Assembly: GCA_903886275.1 (NCBI GenBank)
Contig: CAISLN010000080.1
Coordinates: forward strand, 43,719 to 107,718
DNA length: 64,000 nucleotides
Reading direction: 5' to 3'
Origin: an uncultured beta proteobacterium
GTDB taxonomy: Bacteria > Pseudomonadota > Gammaproteobacteria > Burkholderiales > Burkholderiaceae_C
The notes beneath the pieces are model-generated. The model worked only from the letters and a program-made list of their open reading frames with translations, did not search any database and was not told the origin of the DNA. A program made the translations under genes and the position numbers. This document shows positions 8,347 to 34,581 of the stretch, piece by piece. Position 1 is the first letter of the stretch. Every line of letters begins with the position of its first letter.

Positions 8347-10188
8347 TTAAGGCATGGCGCCCAGCAGCAGCGTGGGCAACCAGGTGGCTGTGGCAGGCAG
8401 CAGGGCAATCGCCAGCGTGCCCAAAAATATGGCCAGCAGCGCGGGCAGCACGGCCACGGCCACATAGCGCACCGGCTTGTCAAACATGGCCGAGGCAAAG
8501 TAGATGTTCATGCCGGCCGGTGGGCACAAAAAGCCCAGCTCCATATTGGCCAAAAAGATGATGCCAAAGTGCACCGGGTCTATGCCGTAGCTCATGGCCA
8601 CCGGCAGCAGCAGGGGCACCAGCACCACCAGCGCGGCAAAGATTTCCATCAGTGAGCCGGCGACAAACAAAAACACATTGAGCACCAGCAGGAACACCCA
8701 TTTGTTGGGGATCACGCCCTGCACCCAGGTGATGGCGGCGTCGGGTATGCCTGCGTCAATCAGGTAGTTGGTCAGGCCCAGCGCCATGCCCAGAATCAGC
8801 ATGACGCCACCAATGATTTGGGTGCCGTCCGAGAGGGCACCGCCCAGCTTGCGCCAGCCCAGCTCGCGGTGCGCCAGCACCTGGGTCAGGATGGCATAGG
8901 CTGCGGCGATGGCCGCGCTTTCTGTGGGTGTGGCCAGGCCGCTGACCAAGGCGCCTATGGCCACCAGGGGCGCCATGATTTCCCACTTGGCGGCCCACAG
9001 AGCCGTGGCCACGCGCGGCTGCGCGGCAGCCGATGGTGTGGCAGTGGGGGTTTGCGCCGCAGTGGCAGGGCGCTTCAAGTAGCCGCCAAACACCAGCAAG
9101 AAGGCGACCATGATGCAGGCCGGCAGCAGTCCGGCCAGGAACATGGTGTTGATGGGCACGCGCGCAATGATGGCGTACATGATGAGCGGCACCGAGGGTG
9201 CCAGCAGCACGCCCAGCGCACTGGCGCTGGTGACCAGACTGATACCGCGCTGCTCCGGAAAACCGGCGTTGCGCAACAGCGGCAGCAGCAGTCCGCCCAA
9301 CGCCAGGATGGTCACACCGCTGCCGCCGGTAAAGGCGGTGAAGGCCGAGCACAGCACGGCGCTGGCCACCACGGTGCCGGTGGCGCCCCCGCCAAAGACG
9401 GCCACAAAAACGGTGCCCAGGCGCTGCGCCGCACCGGTGCGCGCAAACACCAGGCCGGCCAGGGTGAACAGGGGCAGGGCCGGCAGCGAGGGGTTGACGG
9501 TGATCTGGTAATGCGACAGCGGGATGGAGGCCAGGGGCAGGGCGTCCTGCCAAAAGAGGGCCAGCGCCAGCGCGCCCAGCACGCTAAAAATAGGTGCACC
9601 GCACAGCAGCGCGGCCAGCAGGGCGATGACGGCCGGCCAGACCGAAAGCGCCGTGCCGTCCAACTGCCAGGCCAGGGCGATGCCTGCGAGCAGGGGCAGC
9701 AGCGCGCCCAAGCTCTTTTGCCAACCTGCCACCAGCCCCTGCGCGCCCAACTGCAGTCCCAGCAACGCAAAGCCCAGCGGCATGCTGGCCTGCAGCCACC
9801 ACACCGGTATGCCATAAGCCAAAATTTGTGCGGCCTGGCGCTCGCTGTCCACCAGACGCCAGCTCGCCATGCACAGCAGGCCGCAGACCAGGGCCGCAAA
9901 CAGCTTGCCATAGCGCTGGCTGGCCTCGGCCAGGCGCGGGTGCGCGCTGGAGACAAAGCCCTTGCCAAAGCTGCTCAGGTGGCCGTGGCGCAGCGCCGCC
10001 ACCGAACCGAACATGGCCATCACCAGGCCCAGGTGCTGCACGATGACGGGCGCGTTTTGCACGCCGCTGCCGGTCCAGGGTCGCACCAAAATTTCAACCA
10101 GCGGTATCAGCGCCATCAGCACCAGTGCGGCGCATGCCAGCAGTTCGTCCAGGCGGCGCAGGCCCTTGAAGGACAACAGCGCGTTCAT
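8347..10188 (-). CDS. TRAP transporter fused small+large permease (DctQM)
   Basis: N-terminal 4-TM DctQ-like part, then DctM motifs (FTGGSG, LLAPSVPLIMY, TPTESAA, PPAG). Confidence 0.9.
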   Translation of the reverse strand: MNALLSFKGLRRLDELLACAALVLMALIPLVEILVRPWTGSGVQNAPVIVQHLGLVMAMFGSVAALRHGHLSSFGKGFVSSAHPRLAEASQRYGKLFAALVCGLLCMASWRLVDSERQAAQILAYGIPVWWLQASMPLGFALLGLQLGAQGLVAGWQKSLGALLPLLAGIALAWQLDGTALSVWPAVIALLAALLCGAPIFSVLGALALALFWQDALPLASIPLSHYQITVNPSLPALPLFTLAGLVFARTGAAQRLGTVFVAVFGGGATGTVVASAVLCSAFTAFTGGSGVTILALGGLLLPLLRNAGFPEQRGISLVTSASALGVLLAPSVPLIMYAIIARVPINTMFLAGLLPACIMVAFLLVFGGYLKRPATAAQTPTATPSAAAQPRVATALWAAKWEIMAPLVAIGALVSGLATPTESAAIAAAYAILTQVLAHRELGWRKLGGALSDGTQIIGGVMLILGMALGLTNYLIDAGIPDAAITWVQGVIPNKWVFLLVLNVFLFVAGSLMEIFAALVVLVPLLLPVAMSYGIDPVHFGIIFLANMELGFLCPPAGMNIYFASAMFDKPVRYVAVAVLPALLAIFLGTLAIALLPATATWLPTLLLGAMP

Positions 10189-22649: not shown

Positions 22650-23222
22650 CTACAGCTTGTGCGCCGCCGTGAACAGCAAGTCGAAAAACAGGCAGTACAG
22701 AGCAATCGGCAGGGGCAGACCGAGCAGGGTGCCTAGCACATAGTCGCGCAGGCGTACGCCCGAGACGGCCAGCGCATAGTTCAGCGTGGGCAGGGTCTGG
22801 AACAGGGTGCGCAGCAGCAGCACATTGCGCACCGGGTGGGCCTGCAGTTGCCCCAGCAGGCGCAGGGCCAGGGGGCGGTTCAGGTGCACCGTCATGTCGC
22901 CGCCTAACAGGCGGATCAACACAAAGGTGCAGACGCAGGAGATGCAGGCCGCGATGTAGGTCAGCACACCGCCGTCCAGCCGCCCCAGGGCGTAGACGGC
23001 TGCGGCCAAAAAGAGCGAGCCCGGCAGGTGCAGCATATTGCCGACGGCGAACAGGGCCACAAACAGCGCCAGGCTGCTCAAGGGATTGCCGTGCAGCAGG
23101 TCTTGCAGGTACTGCAAGTTGAGGTGGCTGCGCAGCCCCGTGGCATGCTCCAGCAGCACCAGGGCCAGCACCAACAGCAGCAGCGCAATCGGCCGGCGGT
23201 AGCGCCACAGAGCGGCTCTCAC
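22650..23222 (-). CDS. VTT-domain (TVP38/TMEM64) membrane protein
   Basis: LHLPGS...LLLRTLFQTLPTLNYALAVSGVRLRDYVLGTLLGLP; GTG start overlaps the upstream TGA. Confidence 0.8.
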   Translation of the reverse strand: MRAALWRYRRPIALLLLVLALVLLEHATGLRSHLNLQYLQDLLHGNPLSSLALFVALFAVGNMLHLPGSLFLAAAVYALGRLDGGVLTYIAACISCVCTFVLIRLLGGDMTVHLNRPLALRLLGQLQAHPVRNVLLLRTLFQTLPTLNYALAVSGVRLRDYVLGTLLGLPLPIALYCLFFDLLFTAAHKL

Positions 23223-23998
23223 AGGCAGCTCAGGCTCAGGGCCTGCAGGTATTCGTGGCGCTGTGCGTCCTGCACCACCAGGTTGATGCGTCGGGCATGC
23301 TCCGGCTGCTCGGCCAGGGCATAGAACTTCAGCAGCTGCGGCCCCTGGTACTGGCCCACAGGCGCGTACTGGCGCACCACAAAGTCGTGCTTTAAAAATG
23401 CACCGGCGTTTTCTCCGGCCTTGACGCGCGAGCTGTGGCCGTCCTCGGTAACGCTCCAGTAGGCGGTCCATGTCGCCTTGCCATCGACCGGCTCGACCCT
23501 TGCCTCAAAGCCATCGGTGTCGCCTACGCGCTGCAGGTTGATGCGGGCAAGGGCCGGTGGCTGTACGCCCGTGACACGCTGGCTGTCGCGCTGCCCGTGC
23601 CAGTCTCTCCAGTCGCTCCAGTCGCGCCCGTTGCGCAGCAACTGCGGCGTGTAAATGCCGCTCAGGTGGTTTTGCGCCGCGAGGTCTTTTTGCCTTGCAG
23701 AAAATGCCGGCTGGGCAAAGCGGTCCTTCCAGCCTATGTAGTCCCAATAGGCCACATGAAAGGCCTGTGCCACTACCGGCTGGCCCTTCAGCTTGGACAA
23801 CCATTGGTCGGCCGGCGGGCAGGAACTGCAGCCCTCGGAGGTGTAGAGCTCTATCACGGGCGTCAGCGTGGCGCCGCTGCTGGCCTGGCATTGCGGGGCT
23901 GCCGCTGTGGCAGCGAGGGGCAGGGCGCAACACAGGGCGAGCAGGGCGGTCAGAGGGGCAAGGCGACTTGCAGGGCGGCTGGGGTGGTTGTGTTGCAT
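23219..23998 (-). CDS. DUF1223 thioredoxin-like exported protein
   Basis: ELYTSEGCSSCPPAD, FHVAYWDYIGWKDRFA, IYTPQL. Confidence 0.88.
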   Translation of the reverse strand: MQHNHPSRPASRLAPLTALLALCCALPLAATAAAPQCQASSGATLTPVIELYTSEGCSSCPPADQWLSKLKGQPVVAQAFHVAYWDYIGWKDRFAQPAFSARQKDLAAQNHLSGIYTPQLLRNGRDWSDWRDWHGQRDSQRVTGVQPPALARINLQRVGDTDGFEARVEPVDGKATWTAYWSVTEDGHSSRVKAGENAGAFLKHDFVVRQYAPVGQYQGPQLLKFYALAEQPEHARRINLVVQDAQRHEYLQALSLSCL

Positions 23999-24263
23999 CG
24001 TGGTGGTGTCCGTTGGCGGCGATGTGCTTAGTCGCGGGTGCGGGCCCAATCCTTACACTGAATCACAAAGAGCGGCTGAAGTCACGCGGCTTTATTCTGC
24101 ACAGGTGTGTTGAAATTTGGATCACCTGAACCGGCACCCCGTTCCGATGCGGTCGGATAGCCTGGCAGCGGCGCAACGCAATTCGCACTTGCAGAGGGAG
24201 GGGTCTTGCCTAATTACAATTTTTGGGGCCGCCGTGGGCTGGAAGCTGTCTGTCACGTAGTGC

Positions 24264-24313
24264 TTGCGTTAGTCAAGTACGCAGCGTTTGCAGTCATAGA
24301 GATTTTGGCTGTG
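24264..24313. repeat. Left flank repeat element of the sacsin-like island
   Basis: Reverse complement matches 30180-30212 (29/33) and 30115-30139 (22/25). Confidence 0.75.
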
Positions 24314-24462
24314 AACGACTCCAGAAGGCTGATAGCTGCCGGTCACGACAGTCAGCTTTCGAGTTGGCCAATCCATTGCTTATCACAAGCCGTTCATGCC
24401 GGATTTCAATGTGTCCAAAGCGTAAGCTCCTAACCAAATGCCAGTGAACGGCCAGCACGTGC

Positions 24463-27400
24463 TCATGTTGCGACGGACCCAGAACGATACCTAACACGCG
24501 CTTCCGCCTCCTCAATGCGAAAGAGCCCCTCGCTATCCGGGTCGTACGGGTTTGGCAGGACTACGAAATTGGGCGATGTACTAAGCGCATTCTTGACATG
24601 CACAATCAGGAATGTCTCTTTTCGGCGCTTCTTCTTGCCGGCGATTTCCATCGCCAATGCAATTTCGGAAGACCCGAGACTGAAGACGTCAGCATCGCCC
24701 TGCGTTGCTTTGACCTCTACCCGATACTGGCGGCCTTTAACGCAGAACTTGAAGTCGCAGCCAAACCCATCGTCTGCTGGATTGGATTCGTAGACGTACT
24801 GGCTGTTCTCCGAAATCCAAGCCGATGCTGACACGGCGTCCTCTCCATAGCGCAATCGCAGCATCCGGAAGACATGCATCTCCCCCGCCAAGCCGACGGC
24901 CTGGTCGACAGACGTCGGTTGACGACGACGCTTGGTTGAAGTGGGCACTTTGTCCCGCACCACAGGCAGCTTCGCTGGAGGCTTGTTGAGCGGCGCGGTT
25001 TCATCAAGGTTTAGTGGTGGGGCCGATGACAACGCGGAGTCGGGAACCTCTGTCGTAAGCAGGACCCACAGGTTTTTAAGGTTACTCTCCGAAGCGTCGA
25101 ACTCCTTACCGCAGACCTGCACTACATGCTGGCGTTGTGCCGCCGCTTCCTGCGCCGAGCGCAGCCCAGCTTCGGATTCCTCGAGCTCTTGTTCAGACAC
25201 CTCAAGTTTCGAGCGAAGGTCCTCAAGGGATACCGCGCTATTTAAGACAACGGAAAAATCGCCATCGCCCGGGAAGGCCGTTGCGAAAGGGCTCTTCAGC
25301 ATTGTGAATATCTGCTCAGGGTTCCAAAGAGCGACGAACGCGCCGCTACCGAGTTCCTTTTTCAAGCCATGGAGCAAGTGGTCAACGCAGCTTTCCCATT
25401 TGAGTGAGCCCGAAGAGGATTTGAGCAACCATGCAAGCCGGATGTGGTCTAGCTGTTTAGTAGCAAATTGAACACGAGCCACGTTGGAGCGCCCTAATTC
25501 ATCAGGGTCGACCTTCAAGTCAACCCCTGCGGCCTCTAGGGTCCAAACTAACTCGTCCGCATCTTGCGACAGAGCGAGCGTTCCCTGCAACTCGGCCTCG
25601 CCCAGCCAGCGAGAAAATAGGGTCCCAAGGGCAGTTGCAACGTCGTTAAACTTAACTCGCCAACCTGCTTGCGCCAGGGCGTAACCGTTGCTCAGGGTCG
25701 CGTACGTGGAACAAAGTTCTGCGTAACCTGCGTCGGCCTTGCCGCCGGCTATGGCATGACGAGCAACTCTCTTTGCAACCCAGATAAACTCTTCAATAAT
25801 GGCATCGAATTGGGCGCGCCAGGCCTTGTTTTCTATCTCTGATAGCTGAAGGGAGCGAAGGGTATCGTTCCAAATTGAAAGCGTTGGAAATGTGGCCCAC
25901 CGCCCTGCCAGAGTTTCAGCGAACTCGAACATGTCATTGGTCTCCCGAGCCAGCAGGATAAGCTCCGAACACTTCGATGTGTCGAATCCACACTTGTTCA
26001 ACGCCGCCAGCAGCTGCTCCACAGAAGCCGCAGACTCTATGTCTGTGACATCCTGTGAACCGGAAGCCCGAGCGAGCACTCTTGCGTAACGGACCACATG
26101 TCCAACGTCACCACGAAGGTGCTCCAGTATGTGGTGAATCTCTTCTTCGCCTACGGAGCCAAGCGGCTTCAACAACTCGAGGATGCCAGGCGGGGAGTCC
26201 GGGAGCTTGCCAACGGCGCTAAGTACGAACCGTATTGGAAGCTGCAAGTCTTCACGTTCAAGCGCCTGAGCGAGAGCCGGACTCAGGTCTGCCAGGTGGT
26301 TTCTGCACGAGGCATCAAGCAGCAGAGTTTGCGACTGCGCATCCCACAAGCTTGGCACACGTTTTGAAAGAGCTTGGCCATCAGGTCGCACAACCGACAG
26401 CGCCAATCCATCTACCCACGCCACATTGGCCGAAGCGAGCATCTCACAACGCTTGCGAAATGCGGTGGCGTGCACTGAGAGCCCTTGGCTAACTAGCACC
26501 AACAGGGGAGTAGCAATCCAGAAGAGGACGCTGTCCGACAGCAATGTCTTGCCATCGCCATTCCAGGGCAAGCCATCGACTGTCGGACGAACCGTTATTG
26601 CCGAGGCGAACTGTACATTCGTCGCATAATTGGCCTGAAACCACTCTCGCAGCCTCTGGGCTACTCGGGGCAACATTGTGAGGACAGGTAAGCCCAAGTC
26701 TTCAAGAGTACCTGAAAGGGCCGCTTGGTCGGGCAGTACGACCGGTGCCAGAGCGGTTGGCTGAACTCTTTGAAGGCCTCGGTCACGACTCCTTACCGGC
26801 AGTAATTCCAACGACACAGAAGATGAGTCAGGGCGGAACTGCTCCCAAGCTTCGCGGAGCTGGCCAAGCAGTACATTTGCGTCAGCAACAACCTCTGTCC
26901 CAATTGATGCGGTGAGCGCTTCCAAGAGCACTGTGTTGGGGGTATCGTCGCGACCGTTGAAGACATTCATGCCCAGAGAACAAAGTTCGTCAACGAGACC
27001 CTCCCTCGTCGCAATCTTCGCGGCAGCAGCTGCCGGAAGCGCTCGTAGATGCGCGTAATGTCGCGCTCGGCTTGCCAGCGTGTCTGCGGGAACGAACCAG
27101 CGGTCACCGGGGCAATTCCAGGTGCGGCTGTCGTCCTGAACTGCTATCCATGGGCGGGAACGCAGGAAAAGCGATAAGGGGGATTTGAACTTGGCTTTGC
27201 CGTAATAGCCCCCTATCTTCGAAGCGGTGCCAACTTCCCAACTGACCACAGCCCATCTTGGCAGGGCCCAGAGCAACAAGGTTGAAAGGTCCTCTCTTTG
27301 GCCGTCGGAGAGCGATTCATACTCATCAAGGCCGGCGAAGGTCCACATCGACTCCACCCGATACCTAAGGGCGCTCAGGTAAGGCAACGGCACATGCCGA

Positions 27401-29943
27401 TGCGCCATGACAGTTTCGCTCCAGAGACCGGAACTGAAGCCCGGAGGAGGCCCCGAAGGAAGGCTCAGCTCGTTGGAACTGTAAAACGTACTCTCCCAGT
27501 CTGACGACGCGACCTCAACCAACGTGAGGAAATCTGATGCACCGCCTCTGAGCAGTAGGTCCATGTCAGCTGCTGCGCCAAGGTCCGAGTACACAGAATC
27601 ATTGACCGGCAAAAGCAGTTTCGCGTAAGCCGCCTGCCCGGTTGAGGAGGACAGTACGCTCAAATAGCGCTCCAACACTTCGCCGGCCGAGTAATACCAA
27701 CCCGAGCCGAAGACGCTGTCCTTCAACTTGAACCATCCCCCACGGCAGGGAGCAGGCAAGTCACGCAGCAGCTTGAATGTTTCGGGAGCGCCACGCCCTC
27801 TGGCCACGACGTTGCGCATCAGGCGCATTCCCCAAGAGAAGATGTCGCGACACCTTTGGGCATCATCACTTTCATGCGGCACAGGCAGCTGCGGCGTCAG
27901 TCGACGCAGGATGTCGGTAAATATAGTCTCAACCCGAAATGGCGTAACCAGTGCTTGGTTTCCAAGATATTCGCGCACGACGTTTTGAGAATTTCCTTTT
28001 GAGTCGTACAGTTCGATATGGTCACTCAAGAACGCAACGCTGCTCCTCAGTGTGGCTGGAACTGCGCTTGTAGAGCCGTCCGTATCGACGTCGCCCGCAT
28101 CGGGTGTTCCTTGGCGAGGCAAGAAGAATACCTTGGTTCCGCTATCCACTTGATGGAGTTCGTTATCCGTACCCAGCAGCACCTTCGTGCGAGAGAGTTC
28201 CCGCTGCCCATTTGGCAGGAGCGCGACGATGTCGCGCCAGAAGGCGTTCCAATCGCCCCCCTCTCTGCGTATTACTTCAGCGACAGAAGCAGCCAGGGTG
28301 GCGAGCACCCTCGTAGGCATCCGCGCGGAGCCTGTGCCGCAGAACTGTTCTTTGAAAAGTTCGAACTGTTTGGCTCTTCTTTGGGAAAGGTCTCGATGCA
28401 GAAGTGCTACTTCAACGAAACGTCTCACAAGGTCCTCGGTAAAGAACCTGCAGTTTGAAAGTTCCGGGAGTTGGTACGCTTCATGTACCGTTGCCCAACC
28501 ACTTTCAGTCAGTACAAGAGGCACAGAACTGACGTCTAGTCGCGCCCGAGAGATGGCCAGCATCATGTGCTCGGACCAAGCCTCGCCAAGTGCATCGCTC
28601 GCAAGAGGACTCAGAAGGTCCAGAACGGCACGCCCAGCGTCCGATGTGTGTTCCGACGTCTGAACCACCGCCGCGCTCAGGGCAAGGTCGAGGGCCACAT
28701 CAACGAGGTGACGGTTGTAGGCGCTCTCGAACTCTATGGACGTTCGACTCATATCGCCGTAAAACGGCGCGTTCACGTGCACTGCGCTGCCAGTAAGCTC
28801 ATGCGTCGGTAGATAGATGCTGAAGCGGCCAGCGTCTTGCTCGCCACCGCTGCGTATCGCGATGCTGACTTCCGCATCTTGCATCTCAGGCCATCGACCC
28901 GGCAACGCCGCTACTGCCGCTCTGACCTTCTCCGGGGCGTCCGCAATCCGAACACTCGTTCGCCAAAGAAAGTAGTTGCGTCCTGCTTCACGCGGCCCGG
29001 TTAGTGTTACGTGCTTTCCGCCGCTGGCATCCTCCGTAACGTTACGGTGGAATGTTCGCTCCCCCGCTGCGCCATGATGAATCGTGAGTTCACGCAGGTT
29101 CCATAGAAATAGGCATGTGGATGGGTCCAAGGACGCCATCTTCTGGCGCACCTTTTGTGCTACTTGTGCAGACTTCAGTGGGAGGCGGACTACTGTTGCA
29201 AACCCCGCTTGCTCTAGTTTTTGGAGCGCCGCGCTCTCACGGTCCCATATCCCAATGGGAAGAAGATAGGGTGAAAGGTAGCGTACCTCTTGCGTCAACC
29301 ACTCGCGGCCCATTGTCGCCACTCGGCTACGGTATAGGGCGAGCATTTCGGGGGACCAGTTCTGAACCAATGGTGCGCCAGACATATTCCAGACTGGAAT
29401 GCCTTCGCCAAAAGCTAGTTCCGTCATCGGTTCGGCCAGAGAACTGACTGTTGAGGGGCGAAACGCAAAACAGTAGCCGTCAAAAAGAGGACTGTCGACG
29501 TTTTGGCGGGAATAAACTTCCGGGCAGTCGGTGAGCTCTAGCACACTTCTGAACCCTATCCCCTTGTTTCCGATGCTCTTTTGCGGGTCCTTGTCGCTCT
29601 GCCCAAGTGCCGAAATTTTTTCGAAGTTCGAGCGGCTAAAAGGCTCCCCGTCGTTGGCGACCAACAGAGTTCCATGCTCAGAGTCGCCTTGCTCGAAGCG
29701 GATATGAATTCTTCCGCCGCGGGGAATTCCCCCCAATGCATCATGTGCATTTTGAATAAGTTCGATGAGAAAACGACCGTGATACTGATGCTCAACCTGC
29801 TCGGTCAGGTTGTGCATGCTTCGATAGTTCGAGACTCCTTCGGCGAGCTCCGTCAGGAAAACCCTCACCTTTGAGCAAAGGTGCGCCGTAATGTGGTCAA
29901 TAGCGGCTGGCGTTCCTCCCAATGATTTCCCGACTTCAAACAC
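24463..29943 (-). CDS. Sacsin-like GHKL ATPase with C-terminal DUF3883 (NO VEIN-type) PD-(D/E)xK nuclease, ~1826 aa
   Basis: ELIQNAHDA, VANDGEPF, IGNKGIGFRS; C-terminal GLAGE...DDGFGCDF...EVKAT; GAGGAG 6 nt before GTG 29943; lower GC than flanks. Confidence 0.8.
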   Translation of the reverse strand: MFEVGKSLGGTPAAIDHITAHLCSKVRVFLTELAEGVSNYRSMHNLTEQVEHQYHGRFLIELIQNAHDALGGIPRGGRIHIRFEQGDSEHGTLLVANDGEPFSRSNFEKISALGQSDKDPQKSIGNKGIGFRSVLELTDCPEVYSRQNVDSPLFDGYCFAFRPSTVSSLAEPMTELAFGEGIPVWNMSGAPLVQNWSPEMLALYRSRVATMGREWLTQEVRYLSPYLLPIGIWDRESAALQKLEQAGFATVVRLPLKSAQVAQKVRQKMASLDPSTCLFLWNLRELTIHHGAAGERTFHRNVTEDASGGKHVTLTGPREAGRNYFLWRTSVRIADAPEKVRAAVAALPGRWPEMQDAEVSIAIRSGGEQDAGRFSIYLPTHELTGSAVHVNAPFYGDMSRTSIEFESAYNRHLVDVALDLALSAAVVQTSEHTSDAGRAVLDLLSPLASDALGEAWSEHMMLAISRARLDVSSVPLVLTESGWATVHEAYQLPELSNCRFFTEDLVRRFVEVALLHRDLSQRRAKQFELFKEQFCGTGSARMPTRVLATLAASVAEVIRREGGDWNAFWRDIVALLPNGQRELSRTKVLLGTDNELHQVDSGTKVFFLPRQGTPDAGDVDTDGSTSAVPATLRSSVAFLSDHIELYDSKGNSQNVVREYLGNQALVTPFRVETIFTDILRRLTPQLPVPHESDDAQRCRDIFSWGMRLMRNVVARGRGAPETFKLLRDLPAPCRGGWFKLKDSVFGSGWYYSAGEVLERYLSVLSSSTGQAAYAKLLLPVNDSVYSDLGAAADMDLLLRGGASDFLTLVEVASSDWESTFYSSNELSLPSGPPPGFSSGLWSETVMAHRHVPLPYLSALRYRVESMWTFAGLDEYESLSDGQREDLSTLLLWALPRWAVVSWEVGTASKIGGYYGKAKFKSPLSLFLRSRPWIAVQDDSRTWNCPGDRWFVPADTLASRARHYAHLRALPAAAAAKIATREGLVDELCSLGMNVFNGRDDTPNTVLLEALTASIGTEVVADANVLLGQLREAWEQFRPDSSSVSLELLPVRSRDRGLQRVQPTALAPVVLPDQAALSGTLEDLGLPVLTMLPRVAQRLREWFQANYATNVQFASAITVRPTVDGLPWNGDGKTLLSDSVLFWIATPLLVLVSQGLSVHATAFRKRCEMLASANVAWVDGLALSVVRPDGQALSKRVPSLWDAQSQTLLLDASCRNHLADLSPALAQALEREDLQLPIRFVLSAVGKLPDSPPGILELLKPLGSVGEEEIHHILEHLRGDVGHVVRYARVLARASGSQDVTDIESAASVEQLLAALNKCGFDTSKCSELILLARETNDMFEFAETLAGRWATFPTLSIWNDTLRSLQLSEIENKAWRAQFDAIIEEFIWVAKRVARHAIAGGKADAGYAELCSTYATLSNGYALAQAGWRVKFNDVATALGTLFSRWLGEAELQGTLALSQDADELVWTLEAAGVDLKVDPDELGRSNVARVQFATKQLDHIRLAWLLKSSSGSLKWESCVDHLLHGLKKELGSGAFVALWNPEQIFTMLKSPFATAFPGDGDFSVVLNSAVSLEDLRSKLEVSEQELEESEAGLRSAQEAAAQRQHVVQVCGKEFDASESNLKNLWVLLTTEVPDSALSSAPPLNLDETAPLNKPPAKLPVVRDKVPTSTKRRRQPTSVDQAVGLAGEMHVFRMLRLRYGEDAVSASAWISENSQYVYESNPADDGFGCDFKFCVKGRQYRVEVKATQGDADVFSLGSSEIALAMEIAGKKKRRKETFLIVHVKNALSTSPNFVVLPNPYDPDSEGLFRIEEAEARVRYRSGSVAT

Positions 29944-30114
29944 TTTTCTCTCCTCTGACTCGATTTGGCCCCAATTTTGCTCTAACTGTGAACGGCAGCT
30001 TTTGGGCGAGTCCGGGCACCCCTTTGGTTGAACTTTTGGTTTTAAAACTGACGGTTGGCAGACCGCCCCCATGACCGGAATTGGGCGGGCAATTTGAATT
30101 TCTGTAGACCCGCT

Positions 30115-30216
30115 AACGCTGCGGACTTGACTTACGAAATTTCTCCGTGGCCGTCGGTAATGGATCTATACGAGACCTCCACGGCCAAAACCTCAATGAC
30201 TGCAAACGCGGCAGTC
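30115..30216. repeat. Right flank repeat elements of the sacsin-like island
   Basis: Two segments inverted relative to 24264-24313; internal hairpin GACTGC-aaacgcg-GCAGTC at 30198-30216. Confidence 0.75.
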
Positions 30217-30406
30217 CTGCCGACCAGAGAACAGTCGCGTGTGACACCCATGGGTCGAACGTGTGAATTGGAAAAAAATAGCCACGACCACTGACACCCC
30301 CGCCTTCAGCGCCACTTCCTGCGGCTATCCAATTTTCCCGGCAACTACCGATCCGGCCCGAGGGCGATGGATGGTGCGCTTGCTTCGAGGGATGCCGTGC
30401 AGCGCT

Positions 30407-33400
30407 TCAGCTGCCGCGCCAAAGCGGCGCACGCTTTTCGCCAAAGGCGCGCGGGCCTTCTTGGGCGTCTTCGGAGGCAAGCATGGTGCTATAGCTTTTG
30501 ATGTCACCGCTGCGCATGCTTTGGTAGGCCTGGGCCACCGTCAGCCCCTCGGTCTCGCGCAGCACTTCTTTGACGGCGGCTAGCGCTAGCGGGGCGTTTT
30601 GCACGATGGCGGCAGCCAGCTCCTGCGCGGCCTGCATCAATCCTTCTGCGGGCACCACCTGGTTGACCAGGCCCCAACGTTGCGCTTCTTGTGCCGACAT
30701 GCGTCGGCCGGTCAGCACCAGCTCGGTGGCAATGGCGCGCGGCAGTCTGCGGGGCAGGCGCTGCAGGCCACCGGAGTCGGCCACCATGCCCAGCTTCACC
30801 TCGGGCAGGGCGAACTCGGCATGGTCGGCGGCGACGATCAAATCGGCCGCCAGGGCCAGCTCAAAGCCGCCGCCAAAGGCCAGGCCGTTGACCGCCGCAA
30901 TCACCGGCTTGCTAAGTGAAAAGTATTCGGTCAGCCCGGCAAAGCCGCCGGGGCCGTGGTCGGCGTTGATGGCCTCGCCCTCGGTGGCCGCATTCAGGTC
31001 CCAGCCGGCACTGAAAAAACGTCCGGTGCCGGTGACGATGGCCACGCGCATTGCCGGGTCGTCTTGCAACTGCTTGAACGCGGCGTAAAGCGCCAAGCTG
31101 GTGGCCACGTTGATGGCATTGGCCTTGGGTCGGTCCAGCGTGATGGTCAGCACGCCGTTGTGGGCTTCGGTGCGCACGCTGTGTTGCAGGGTGTCGGTCA
31201 TGGGGGTGGCTTGCGGTAAAAGATGGATGAGTGCGTCTACCGCCAGCACGCCTTGGGGCAGTACCAGCAGCGGGTTGACATCGAGTTCGAGCAGGCGGTC
31301 TGCGTGGGCCTGGGCATAGGCGGCGATGGCAGACACCGCGTCCACGAGTGCGTCTACATCGCCGACGGTTCTGCCCCGGTAGCCGTTCAGCAGCGGCCAG
31401 GTTTTCAGGCCCTGCAGTGCGGCGCGTATGTCCTCAGTGGATACCGGCAGCAGCAGGGTGGCCGTGTCTTGCAACAGCTCCACCCAAATGCCGCCGGAAC
31501 CCAGGGTGAGGGCCAGGCCGAACTGCGCATCGCGGCTGATGCCGACAATGAGCTCGGCCACCACATCGGTGGCCATTTGCTCGACCAGAAAGTCGCTCGC
31601 CAGATGCGCCATCGAGGCCACGGCGGCCTGTACCTGGGCCGCAGTTTTCAGGTTGAGCTTGACGCCACCGGCCTCGGTCTTGTGGGCCAGCAGCTCGGAC
31701 ACGGCCTTCACCACCACCGGGTAGCCCAAGGTTTGTGCAGCAGCCGTGGCTTCGTGCGCTGGCACACACAGGCCTTTGGGTATGGGCAGACCAAAGGCCT
31801 GCAGCGCCTGTTTGCTGGCCACTTCGTTGAGCATACGGCCTGCCCCCTGTGCGGCCGGTGCCGCAAGCCCTGCCACCGGCAGCAGCGCTTGCCAGCGGGC
31901 TTGGGCCGCGCCTATGCGCGCCGCGTGGGCAATCGCCTGCAGACAGTCGGCCGTGCCCTGCATGGGCGCAATGCCCTGCGCCAGCAATGCCTCGCTCACC
32001 GCGTCGGGCAGGCCCTCGGGCAAGGAGCTCAGCACCACCGCGGCGGCACCGGTCTGCTTCTGTGCGGCCGCAAAGCCGTCCAGCGTGGTCTGCCAACTCG
32101 ACCCATCGCAGCGGTCGGCGCGCGGGAAGTCCAGCACCAGCAGATGCGCGTCAAAGTCGCAGTCCATCAAGCCTGCAAAGCATTCGGTCTGCGCGGCCAG
32201 ATCGCCCCAGATATAGGTGTGGTAATCGAGCGGATTGGCCACCGTGACCTTTTCGCCCAGCACCTTGAAAAGGCGCTCATGCGCGGGCGCAGGCAGCTCC
32301 GGCAGGGCCAGTCCGTGCGCCTGCGCCAGGTCGGCCACCAGCGAGGCTTCGCCGCCCGAGCAACTTGCCGAAACAATGGCATTGCTTTTGAGCGCGCCAT
32401 GCACATGCAAAAACTTAAGCGTCTCGAGCAGGGTGGACACATCGAACACGCGGGCCACGCCGCAGCGCGCAAACAGCGCGTCATAGAGCTTGTCGGGGCC
32501 GGCCAGTGAGCTGGTGTGGCTCATGGTGGTGCGCGCGCCCAGCTCCGAGCTCCCCGCTTTCAGCGCCACCAGTGGCACGCGCTTTTGCAGCGCACGGATC
32601 GCCACGCGCGAGAACGCCGCCACATCGTCCAGTGCCTCCAAGTGCATGCCAATCGCGGTCACACGGGGGTCGTCCAGCAGCGCGTGGATGAGGGCGGCTA
32701 TGCTGCCTGTCGCCTGGTTGCCCACGGTGATCAGATAGGCCAGGGGCAGGGCGCGGCGCTGCATGGTGAGGTTCAGGCCGATGTTGCCGCTTTGCGTGAT
32801 GATGGCCACGCCGCGCTCCAAACGCTGCCCGCCATGTTGGTCCGGCCACAGGGCCACCCCGTCCAGATAGTTGAGAAGCCCATAGCAGTTGGGGCCAATC
32901 AGTGCCATGTCGGCAGCGGCGTCCACCAGCTCCTGTTGCAGGGCCACACCCTCGCCACCCACCTCGGCAAAGCCGGAGGCATAGCAGATGGCGCCACCGG
33001 CGCCGCGGTTGCTGAGTTGGCGCACCAGCTCCACCGTGGCCCGCGCTGGCACGGCGACAAAGGCGGCATCCGGCGCTGCGGGCAGTGACGCCACATCGGC
33101 AAAGCAGGGCAGTCCTTCCATCTCGCTGCGGGTCGGGTGCACCGGCCAGATCTCGCCACAGTAGCCGAGCTTGTGGCATTGGCGAATCACCTCGGCTGCG
33201 GCCTTGCCGCCGAACACGGCAATGCTGCGGGGGGCGAACAGGCGTTGAAGGGGTGTAGCCCCCACGCTCCCCGCTGCGCGAGGTTCGCTGGACCTGCCTA
33301 GGCCAGAGGCCAAGGCTCTTGCGCCTGTCCCAATCTGCGCAGGCAGATTGGGAGCCGCAGGCGCCAGCCCCGAGGGGGCGCTCACGCCTTCGGGCGGCCG

Positions 33401-33424
33401 TGCGGCGTTCGGTGCGCTGCTCAT
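30407..33424 (-). CDS. ADP-forming acyl-CoA ligase fused in frame to a CaiD-like enoyl-CoA hydratase (hydratase part from ATG 31201)
   Basis: [32 protein letters not shown]-grasp HKTEAGGV and LDVNPL, then [31 protein letters not shown]; no stop at the junction. Confidence 0.85.
33258..33410. repeat. REP/MITE-like palindromic element with nested hairpin insert
   Basis: 33258-33290 matches 46243-46276 with 1 indel and 1 mismatch; internal perfect 11-bp inverted repeat at 33328-33353. Confidence 0.75.
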
Positions 33425-34581
33425 GCGCCGTGGGCGCGCAGCATGGCGCGCGAGATGATGTGGCGCTGGATTTCGCTGGTGCCGTCCCAGATGCGCTCCA
33501 CCCTTGCGTCGCGCCAAAAGCGCTCAATCGGCATGGAGCCCATCAGGCCCATGCCGCCAAAAATTTGCAGTGTCTGGTCGGTGATGCGGGCCAGCGTCTC
33601 GGAGGCAAACAGCTTGGCCATGGCGGCGTCTGAGTCGGTCATGCGGCCCTGGTCGCATTTCCAGGCGGCCTGCAGCGTCAGCAATTCTGCCGCCTCCAAC
33701 TCGGTGGCCATGTCGGCGAGCTTGAAGCCGGTGCCCTGAAAGCGCCCTATCGGTTGGCCGAACTGCTTGCGCGTGGCGGCCCAAACGGTTGCCAGTTCCA
33801 GCACGCGCCGGCCCCGCCCCACGCTGGTGGCTGCCACGGTCAGGCGCGTGGCGCCCAGCCATTCGCCCATCAGCTCAAAGCCCTTGCCCTCTTCGCCCAG
33901 GCGCTTGCCAACCGGCACGCGCACATCGTCAAAAAACAGTTCGCACTGGTGGTAGCCCCGGTGCGAGACGCAGGCCGGGCCGCGCCTTCGCGTCACACCG
34001 GGCGTATCAAAGTCCACCAGAAAGCCGGTGATTTTTTTCTTGGGTCCGGCCTTGGTTTCTTCCACGCCGGTGGCCGCAAACAGAATCACATAGTCGGCCA
34101 TATCGGCATGGCTGATGAAATGCTTGCTGCCGTTGATCACATAGTCGTCGCCATCCCGCACGGCACTCGTCAACATACCGCGCACGTCTGATCCGGCATG
34201 GGGCTCGGTCATGGCCAGGCAGTCGTGGCGCTCACCGCGAATGGTGGGCAGCAAATACTCTTGCACTTGTGATCCGGTGCAGCCACGCAGGATATTGCTG
34301 GGCCGGGCAATCAGCATTTGCAGGCCGTAGGAGGCGCGCCCGAGTTCACGCTCCAAGAGCGTGACACCCAAGTTGTCGAGCCCGCCACCTCCGAGTTCTT
34401 CTGGCATGTTGGCGGCATACAGGCCGACCTCTATGGCCTTGGCCTGAATCTGCGCGGCCAGCTCCGGCGGAATTTCGTCGGTGCGCTCGACCAGGTCTTC
34501 GTGCGGATAGAGTTCGATTTCTATAAAGCTGCGCACGGTGTCCACCAGCATGCGGTGTTCCAGGCTGAGTTCGAAATGCAT
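33421..34581 (-). CDS. Acyl-CoA dehydrogenase (gamma-butyrobetainyl-CoA dehydrogenase-like by context)
   Basis: [44 protein letters not shown]. Confidence 0.9.

Follow-up and report, generated by a model that had tools for sequence, protein, structure and literature searches.

Inverted repeat units with two kinds of ends frame a Tiamat anti-phage gene and other accessory genes in betaproteobacterial genomes

How single defence genes such as Tiamat are transferred between genomes and settle in them is poorly understood; mostly they are recorded as lying 'in islands', with no vehicle in view. We analysed a 64-kb stretch of DNA (called the window throughout; contig C80, positions 43719-107718) from the draft genome of an uncultured beta proteobacterium (G000; 5.19 Mb in 132 contigs), in which a Tiamat gene, tmtA, lies in a low-GC patch between two inverted repeats. 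The locus raises the question of whether these repeats are the ends of something that moves. We found that they belong to a family of repeat units that follows an orientation rule, occurs as paired ends of two kinds (A and B), frames variable cargo and is spread patchily over genera and orders. The two repeats may be the differentiated ends of a carrier element that has two ends but no transposase and depends on an enzyme acting in trans, a reading to which we give a probability of about 0.45, and the segments framed by such ends would then be mobile. If this is true, the repeat pair would be a vehicle of the kind that is missing from descriptions of defence islands, or at least a docking frame.

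The repeat pair and the Tiamat gene between its arms

Across ~24000-30300 of the window the GC content dips from ~65% to 52-58%, and this stretch is occupied by one long minus-strand open reading frame (ORF; 24463-30072) with an intergenic gap of ~460 nt on either side. The main inverted repeat (I2) has its arms in these gaps, at 24281-24321 and 30172-30212 (41 nt, 83% complementary), and a second one (I1) has arms at 24254-24302 and 30101-30149 (49 nt, 73%). The core of the pair, 24281-24313 against 30180-30212, had been reported as identical at 29/33 positions in a preliminary description made from the letters of this DNA; we recovered the same match and could extend it to 34/41. No other 41-nt inverted match of the two intergenic regions was better, and 40 shuffles reached no more than 26/41. 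Furthermore, the pattern GCNGCGTTTGCAGTCATNGAGNTTTTGGCNGTG matched exactly twice in the window, at 24281-24313 (+) and 30180-30212 (-), and gave no match in 100 dinucleotide-preserving shuffles. The features of the locus are as follows.

23219-23998, minus strand: DUF1223 gene, the left core flank (Pfam PF06764, E 5.8e-47; GC ~65%)
24228-24283, no strand assigned: outer extension of the left (A-type) end, made up of GGGCTGGAAGC, which is like the inner block of another unit, and then the 13-nt tail GTTAGTCAAGTAC
24268-24345, minus strand: left full unit, A-type (nhmmer E 4.3e-21; covariance model E 5.9e-20)
24440-30008, minus strand: TmtA module, the only part with nucleotide similarity (81-86%) to TmtA loci elsewhere (blastn against loci L130-L134)
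24463-29943, minus strand: tmtA (Tiamat) coding sequence, 1826 amino acids, with a GTG start at 29943 and the ribosome-binding site GAGGAG before it
30101-30143, plus strand: inner part of the right (B-type) end, a truncated unit and then a spacer
30144-30225, plus strand: right full unit, B-type, with the inner block TAATGGATCTATAC and the ending ..AATGACTGCAAACGCGGC AGTCCTGCCGACC (nhmmer E 5.1e-20; covariance model E 6.7e-19)
30226-30272, plus strand: degenerate third unit fragment (..CCCATGGGTCGAACGTGTGAAT) outside the right full unit, recognised by inspection by eye only
30407-31201, minus strand: enoyl-CoA hydratase gene, the right core flank (Pfam ECH_1, E 2.9e-71)

Read inward, the left full unit runs GCAGCG TTTGCAGTCAT AGAGATTTTGGCTGTGA ACGACTCC AGAAGGCTGATA. 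Its outer extension can be aligned to the corresponding outer sequence of a left end in genome G351, which belongs to a different genus, and the tail GTTAGTCAAGTAC is a variant form of ATACCTGCCGAC, the consensus tail of the family. The right end, judged from its sequence, reads as a short tandem array: a truncated unit ending ..CGCTAACGCTGC (30101-30122), which is the outer part of a unit (ACGCTGC plus GGACTTGACTTAC), the spacer GGACTTGACTTACGAAA (30123-30143), the full unit, and the degenerate third piece, which by eye resembles the sequence past the units of contig C38 and CATAGGGGTCGAATGTGTGAGTT in Sulfuriferula. Because the truncated unit shares ACGCTGC and the tail with the left unit, the left element matches the right side twice. 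The second piece at 30115-30139, described earlier as part of the left element in swapped order, is thus real, but it is a truncated tandem copy lying inward of the full right unit and not a rearrangement. The same composite of truncated unit and spacer was found at G120:C98, G070:C144, two G351 loci (L166 and L168) and the Sulfuriferula locus L223, and since it recurs at those loci it belongs to one kind of end and is no local accident.

The gene between the two ends encodes a member of the TmtA family. Its longest ORF reaches back to an ATG at 30072 (1869 amino acids); on near-identical metagenome contigs, gene callers begin tmtA at the GTG at 29943, giving 1826 amino acids. The PADLOC profile PDLC03971 (TmtA) matched with E 4.8e-253, residues 57-1863 aligning to profile positions 13-1779 of 1782. 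The N-terminus carries a sacsin/GHKL ATPase region (SACS/HATPase_c_3, residues 99-192; PF25794 E 1.6e-12, PF13589 E 0.01) and the C-terminus a NOV_C (DUF3883) match that falls slightly under the cut-off (residues 1757-1837; PF13020 E 9e-4). From these matches we take the cargo to be a complete Tiamat anti-phage gene, and it has its own short promoter region. Tiamat has been described as a single-gene anti-phage system with ATPase and DNase activities (bioRxiv 10.64898/2026.09.30.754977), with which the label 'nuclease' in the preliminary description agrees. Compared with that description, the window protein is ordinary for its family, and what is unusual is only its genomic frame.

The gene and its frame appear to have separate histories. 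The blastn homology of L130-L134 to the window breaks off at 24440-24455 on one side and 29953-30008 on the other, so that the shared module consists of the gene with ~65 nt upstream and 10-20 nt downstream. This shared DNA reaches no more than tens of bases past the gene on either side, so that TmtA moves as a module of the size of one gene. The anatomy of the window is A end, 99 nt, TmtA module, 61 nt and B end, and a comparison of these sequences indicates that TmtA came into the repeat frame separately, as a 5.57-kb module. The notion that the repeats form the cassette of the nuclease gene in particular did not survive this comparison: TmtA homologues with 79-85% amino acid identity share 24440-30008 alone with the window and carry no units.

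The TmtA homologues at L130-L134, which come from metagenomes, lie in defence islands near E1/E2/multi-ubiquitin genes and a pair of helix-turn-helix (HTH) and M78 peptidase genes. Their further neighbours include MksE/DUF3584 (Wadjet-like) genes, a second HATPase_c_3 protein and a DEAD/MZB helicase. On the right flank of the window, an ADP-forming acyl-CoA ligase-like region and the enoyl-CoA hydratase are joined in one frame with no intervening stop (30407-33517, minus strand), and in metagenome contigs the two are called as one protein of 1005 amino acids.

A repeat family with paired, differentiated ends

BLAST and an nhmmer profile placed six copies of the unit in the own genome of the window, the two in the window and four others. 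All six turn their CAC.. side toward low-GC accessory genes and their ACGCKGC-tail side toward core genes.

Both window copies: accessory side occupied by TmtA
C8:34450-34536: accessory side occupied by a small HTH gene in a patch of 47% GC
C38:207240-207328, and a partial copy at C38:204901-204937: accessory side occupied by a PIN_2 toxin-antitoxin cassette and by a GNAT plus ParDE-like cassette (ParDE by eye only)
C64:17703-17764: accessory side occupied by a gene of lower GC (0.54-0.59)

A sequence-only covariance model (R1, from alignment A1) was used for the genus survey and found 75 copies in 31/159 genomes, with 1-5 copies per genome. Units were present in 6/201 genera sampled at the family level, and an exact-pattern scan of species-representative genomes added Sulfuriferula sp. 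GW1 (a complete chromosome), a Gallionella metagenome-assembled genome (MAG) and a Rhodoferax MAG. A BLAST search of plasmids with the consensus unit gave no match. As far as these surveys reach, the family is patchy, scattered in freshwater Burkholderiales of Rhodoferax type and extending to Sulfuriferula and Gallionella. A search for copies beside other low-GC accessory genes had been proposed as a check on the window pair, and copies do flank such genes: of the 40 copies for which both flanks could be compared, 29 had a lower GC content in the inner 1.2 kb than in the outer 1.2 kb (means 0.551 vs 0.590; Wilcoxon p=3.6e-4).

The conserved block spans ~75 nt over 37 distinct copies and reads ..GCTatCAGCCCttctGGAGTCATtCaCGGCCAAAAnCCCAATGACTCCTGACGCTGC ATACCTGcCgAC; the full unit is ~75-90 nt long. 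It consists of a palindrome, GGAGTCAT-N17-ATGACTCC, with the conserved loop CGGCCAAAA, followed by CTGACGCTGC and a tail of ~13 nt. The arms of the palindrome (GAGTCAT-N17-ATGACTC), which are partly lost in the right copy of the window, pair in 76% of cells; in slid registers the value is 16-38%. An 8-9-nt word, WTGACTYMC, repeats within the units in a fixed orientation. A different hairpin, GACTGC-7-GCAGTC, had been singled out in the right window copy; it is present there, but only 2/37 members have it and it is no feature of the family. A division into two 'flank types' after ACGCKGC was also considered and rejected, both being variants of one conserved tail.

In addition to the window pair, eight more inverted pairs were found, spread over two genera of the family and Sulfuriferula, and the cargo that they frame is unrelated.

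G130:C379, 0.6 kb: one small ORF
G127:C267, 1.7 kb: a beta-lactamase-like protein
G120:C98, 1.9 kb: an HD-GYP-like protein
G154:C46, 4.2 kb: two GmrSD-like proteins
G154:C24, 7.3 kb, 46% GC: a WYL regulator, an exonuclease-like protein and others
G351 (L166), 11.8 kb: nine genes
G351 (L168), 1.15 kb: one predicted membrane protein (by eye; no Pfam match)
Sulfuriferula sp. GW1, ~3 kb: a GGDEF-EAL protein

The close inverted pairs were all arranged (-,+), with their inner sides facing each other, and no (+,-) pair was seen among them. Furthermore, the two members of a pair differ in kind. The A end, on the left in the window, has the inner block ..CCAGAAGGCTGATA / ..AGAAGGCTGATA, and the B end, on the right, has ..AGACCCAT / ..AGATCCAT together with the extra truncated unit and spacer. 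At least 6/8 pairs compared combine an A end with a B end, and a ninth pair, that of Sulfuriferula, is likewise arranged by eye. The A end of the window and that of the 11.8-kb G351 element are identical at 52 of ~56 positions (~93%) and align for ~56 nt further, outside GCAGCG, and the two B ends align over ~145 nt. Cargo and sites of these two elements are unrelated, DUF1223/hydratase in the window against the nagZ side and lysS in G351 (gene names by eye). Since the left end of the window is closer to a foreign left end than to its own right end, end-specific functional constraint or recent horizontal spread is indicated, rather than drifting passive repeats.

Mobility of the framed segments and rival explanations

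The reading as carrier ends is favoured by the strict inward orientation, the A/B asymmetry, the conservation across genera and orders at unrelated sites, the variable cargo, the patchy distribution and the repetition of short words within ends of 100-150 nt. Each end would comprise one full unit of ~75-90 nt plus truncated tandem copies; the WTGACTYMC words would be bound by a recombinase or transposase whose gene lies elsewhere, and that enzyme would move or exchange whatever lies between the ends, with cargo modules such as TmtA entering and leaving the carrier separately. A further point in favour comes from genome G579, which does not have the whole G351 island, units included, and in which the two flanks are joined with 4 nt between them. 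The earlier proposal of a non-autonomous cassette system has thus gained a dispersed family at low-GC accessory borders, a fixed orientation, unrelated framed cargo and the lack of an enzyme in cis, but it is left without a duplication, a direct-repeat core or a named recombinase.

Several results weigh against the carrier reading. The borders of 7 pairs showed no target-site duplication or direct repeat of at least 7 nt; shorter duplications may escape this check, as conservation declines gradually along the tail and leaves the exact termini unfixed. No integrase or transposase lies near the window pair, and no target-site duplication is visible there, as had been noted before; no recombinase was found within the pairs or next to them, and among the proteins encoded on the inner side of 51 copies no family came up repeatedly. 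No autonomous copy with the same ends and a transposase was found, cargo included, and no framed element was seen in identical form at more than one site. Units number only 1-6 per genome overall, many copies are solo, and neighbours in the same orientation occur two or three times (C38, which has two units in direct orientation, G351 L169 and G154:C24). The 12.8 kb missing from G579 extend past the units on both sides, by 910 nt at the A unit and by 69 nt at the B unit. Finally, TmtA travels without units, none being found in L130-L134. The lack of a target-site duplication in particular disfavours an ordinary DDE cut-and-paste element.

Empty sites had been suggested as a check on the pair, and G579 compared with G351 was the sole one found, with its ends off the units as just described. 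For the DUF1223/hydratase locus of the window there was none among the relatives and metagenome contigs compared. Species-level relatives have DUF1223, but the hydratase does not adjoin it, and 17/17 metagenome contigs read with an identical DUF1223 protein carry TmtA too, in the same gene order. In the nearest hydratase relative in metagenomes (L050, 83% amino acid identity), homology to the window stops at 30424 and is followed by other low-GC DNA with no unit. A joined-flank search for an empty site of G154:C24 found none, the relatives retaining the upstream gene only, and at G351 L168 there was none either, flank homology stopping 330 nt short of the unit.

The main rival, which we consider possible but doubtful, is that the units are passive mosaic border repeats at island edges, where their ~100 nt of common sequence would serve RecA-dependent swapping of cargo between strains and loci, as the dRS3/NIME repeats and 'minimal mobile elements' of Neisseria do. 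This would account for the absence of a target-site duplication and of any cis or recurrent recombinase, for an empty site that lies off the units, and for variable DNA that in relatives starts directly past the stop codon of a core gene. Long duplications of flanking-gene ends beside the units (the 3' end of a LysR gene three times on C38, and a 240-nt TacA-like fragment in G351) also point to homologous events in these regions. However, passive repeats would be expected to show neither the A/B asymmetry nor an exclusively inward orientation, and ends that are ~93% identical between genera despite unrelated loci and cargo, a patchy distribution reaching other orders, and a conserved loop with sub-repeats suggestive of a sequence-specific partner are all at odds with them. 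Passive repeats would still mark insertion hotspots in freshwater Burkholderiales-type genomes (relatives of Rhodoferax) and help in the annotation of islands; if they are carrier ends, the unit sequence can be used in searches for the partner enzyme and for new cargo genes in metagenomes, and in cassette-exchange tests at the bench.

It is improbable that the units serve a site-specific recombinase as a switch or shuffler, which would invert or swap the segment between them, with TmtA being read through from the hydratase operon in one orientation only. Inverted repeats have the right substrate geometry, the unit contains a palindrome, and TmtA, the hydratase operon and the DUF1223 gene are all on the minus strand; yet the framed segments differ widely in size (0.6-11.8 kb), carry promoters of their own and contain genes in mixed directions, no invertase gene lies nearby, and the gene order was the same in all of the metagenome contigs read. 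The 17-nt gap between the half-sites is, to our knowledge, unlike the core of known invertases or tyrosine recombinases. Equally hard to credit, and if anything slightly more so, is a role of the units as cis-regulatory or RNA elements, for instance insulators, terminators or small RNAs, carried along by accessory genes and unrelated to DNA movement. The units are intergenic and stand at gene ends, and their palindrome pairs far above its slid registers, but a search of 23900-30500 gave no relevant Rfam match at E up to 5, and RNAalifold returned no consensus structure on either strand. Almost no compensatory changes were seen, A:C and G:T mismatches both occur, so that there is no strand preference, the palindrome is not followed by a U-run, and TmtA elsewhere does without units. 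With little compensatory change, no strand preference and an empty RNAalifold structure, the alignment is evidence of sequence conservation and not of an RNA fold, and a structured RNA was rejected.

Known systems and the surroundings of individual units

Among described elements, the carrier reading comes closest to inverted-repeat-framed, enzyme-less gene cassettes, a kind already known; long ends of tandem units, an A/B asymmetry and the lack of a duplication occur together with this plan in none of the families compared. We compared the units as mobile insertion cassettes or MITE-TIME composites with the Tn3-derived mobile insertion cassettes (MICs) of Xanthomonas (PMC4337579) and with TIME-COMPs (PMC13367494). 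As in these, passenger genes without a transposase lie between inverted terminal repeats, the cargo varies and mobilisation in trans is presumed; such terminal repeats are present in the window (34/41) and in eight other pairs. The ends recur at many unrelated sites, and the junctions of the one empty site (G579) fall off the units. Unlike in the described elements, there is no target-site duplication here, the ends are tandem units of 75-150 nt instead of 38-bp GGGG..TAAG repeats, and no cognate autonomous element was found. An origin from the Tn3 family was rejected: some copies begin with GGGGCG and none has a TAAG end. No unit was found at E up to 1 beside ten Tn3-family transposase genes of unit-bearing genomes, no such transposase is encoded in the own genome, and a genuine Tn501-like repeat in L205 is unrelated to the units. 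Co-occurrence with Tn3-family transposases is weak (15/31 unit-bearing genomes vs 32/128 without units, by hand count).

Integron attC sites were also rejected. RYYYAAC/GTTRRRY is absent from the 37-copy alignment and from the consensus, which bears out the mismatch noted before, GTTAGTC in the left copy being a one-off near-match; the pairs are inverted, not one site per cassette in a single orientation, and the window flanks hold no integrase. The units resemble integrons in that promoter-poor single-gene cassettes (toxin-antitoxin, GNAT, defence) lie by imperfectly palindromic repeats of 60-130 nt with the enzyme elsewhere, but differ in being inverted around the cargo and in that no IntI or attI was seen, although the whole genome was not screened for IntI. 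REP/REPIN elements mobilised by RAYT were excluded by copy number, 1-6 per genome against the tens to hundreds required. The own genome gave two Y1_Tnp hits, with no unit near either; these IS200/RAYT-type homologues are a short ORF of 108 amino acids (C66:28684-28962) and a RAYT-like gene of 235 amino acids (C117:9338-9625). By inspection, the consensus contains nothing like the 28-bp 11-6-11 dif site of Xer modules, and a search of the own draft genome for a canonical dif found none.

Three further systems share part of this plan. On Acinetobacter plasmids, discrete modules, toxin-antitoxin pairs included, lie between inverted pdif (XerC/D) sites, with the host recombinase encoded elsewhere; the framing by inverted sites and the presumed position of the enzyme are alike, but our units have no 11-6-11 core, are chromosomal, and form longer, asymmetric ends. 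In Neisseria, with its numerous dRS3/NIME repeats and its minimal mobile elements, exchange is by transformation and homologous recombination. The repeats there are also mosaic and intergenic and border gene-sized variable regions between conserved genes, but the units described here number 1-6 per genome and their pairs have distinct A and B ends. Tn7-like elements, Mu and Tn402 have asymmetric ends of ~100-150 nt with several repeated binding words, and defence genes are frequent cargo of such elements. The asymmetric ends built of repeated words are alike, but TG..CA tips, a 5-bp duplication and tnsABC or tniABQ are lacking here, and the unit is far longer than 19-22 bp. Tentatively, and with more doubt than confidence, the units could represent an undescribed class of two-ended, enzyme-less carriers in Betaproteobacteria, whose A and B ends of 75-150 nt, composed of a palindromic unit, would be read by a chromosomal or phage-borne recombinase and which would acquire and move single defence genes, toxin-antitoxin pairs and small islands without a target-site duplication.

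The surroundings of some units are themselves composite. On C38 (204600-207438; L007 14600-17438), the LysR 3' end and ~170 nt downstream of it are present in three copies of ~300 nt that are 80-96% identical. The copies are separated by a PIN_2 toxin-antitoxin cassette and a FitA/PIN (VapBC-type) cassette, with a unit at two of the joints, so that the region is a small tandem cassette array. Contig C47 (1522 bp) holds a GNAT and ParD/ParE-like cassette, its genes assigned by eye only; the contigs involved with it are the end of C38, the start of C11 and the end of C59. In the assembly graph, with overlaps of 141 nt, the C47 cassette is joined either to the LysR array of C38 or to C11, a prophage-like contig with a terminase-like gene, and the C38 and C11 paths split exactly at the CAGCCC block of the unit; the two paths probably reflect strain variants in the population. 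In Sulfuriferula sp. GW1 (NZ_CP170197.1; L223 41-5520), the order is the 3' end of guaA, a P4-type tyrosine integrase with an arm-binding domain, an A-type unit, the GGDEF-EAL gene and a B-type end. The A-type unit starts 300 nt past the integrase stop, and the framed segment lies within or abuts a guaA-associated integrase island. The integrase neighbour in Sulfuriferula and the join to C11 hint that integrase-borne elements interact with the units.

In G351 (contig C1), a direct repeat of 240 nt, 81% identical, is present at L168 3896-4136 and 8873-9115, and the second copy overlaps a TacA-type antitoxin gene (8823-9383). The two copies flank 5 kb that contain the small framed element, a rhodanese gene and toxin-antitoxin genes. 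At L047 3682-3805 (G154:C24:15682-15805), just outside a unit, lies a different palindromic repeat of ~100 nt, GGGGTATGCCGCGCGCC .. GGCGCGCGGCATACCCC, which recurs at 81-86% identity in at least 5 other genomes of the genus.

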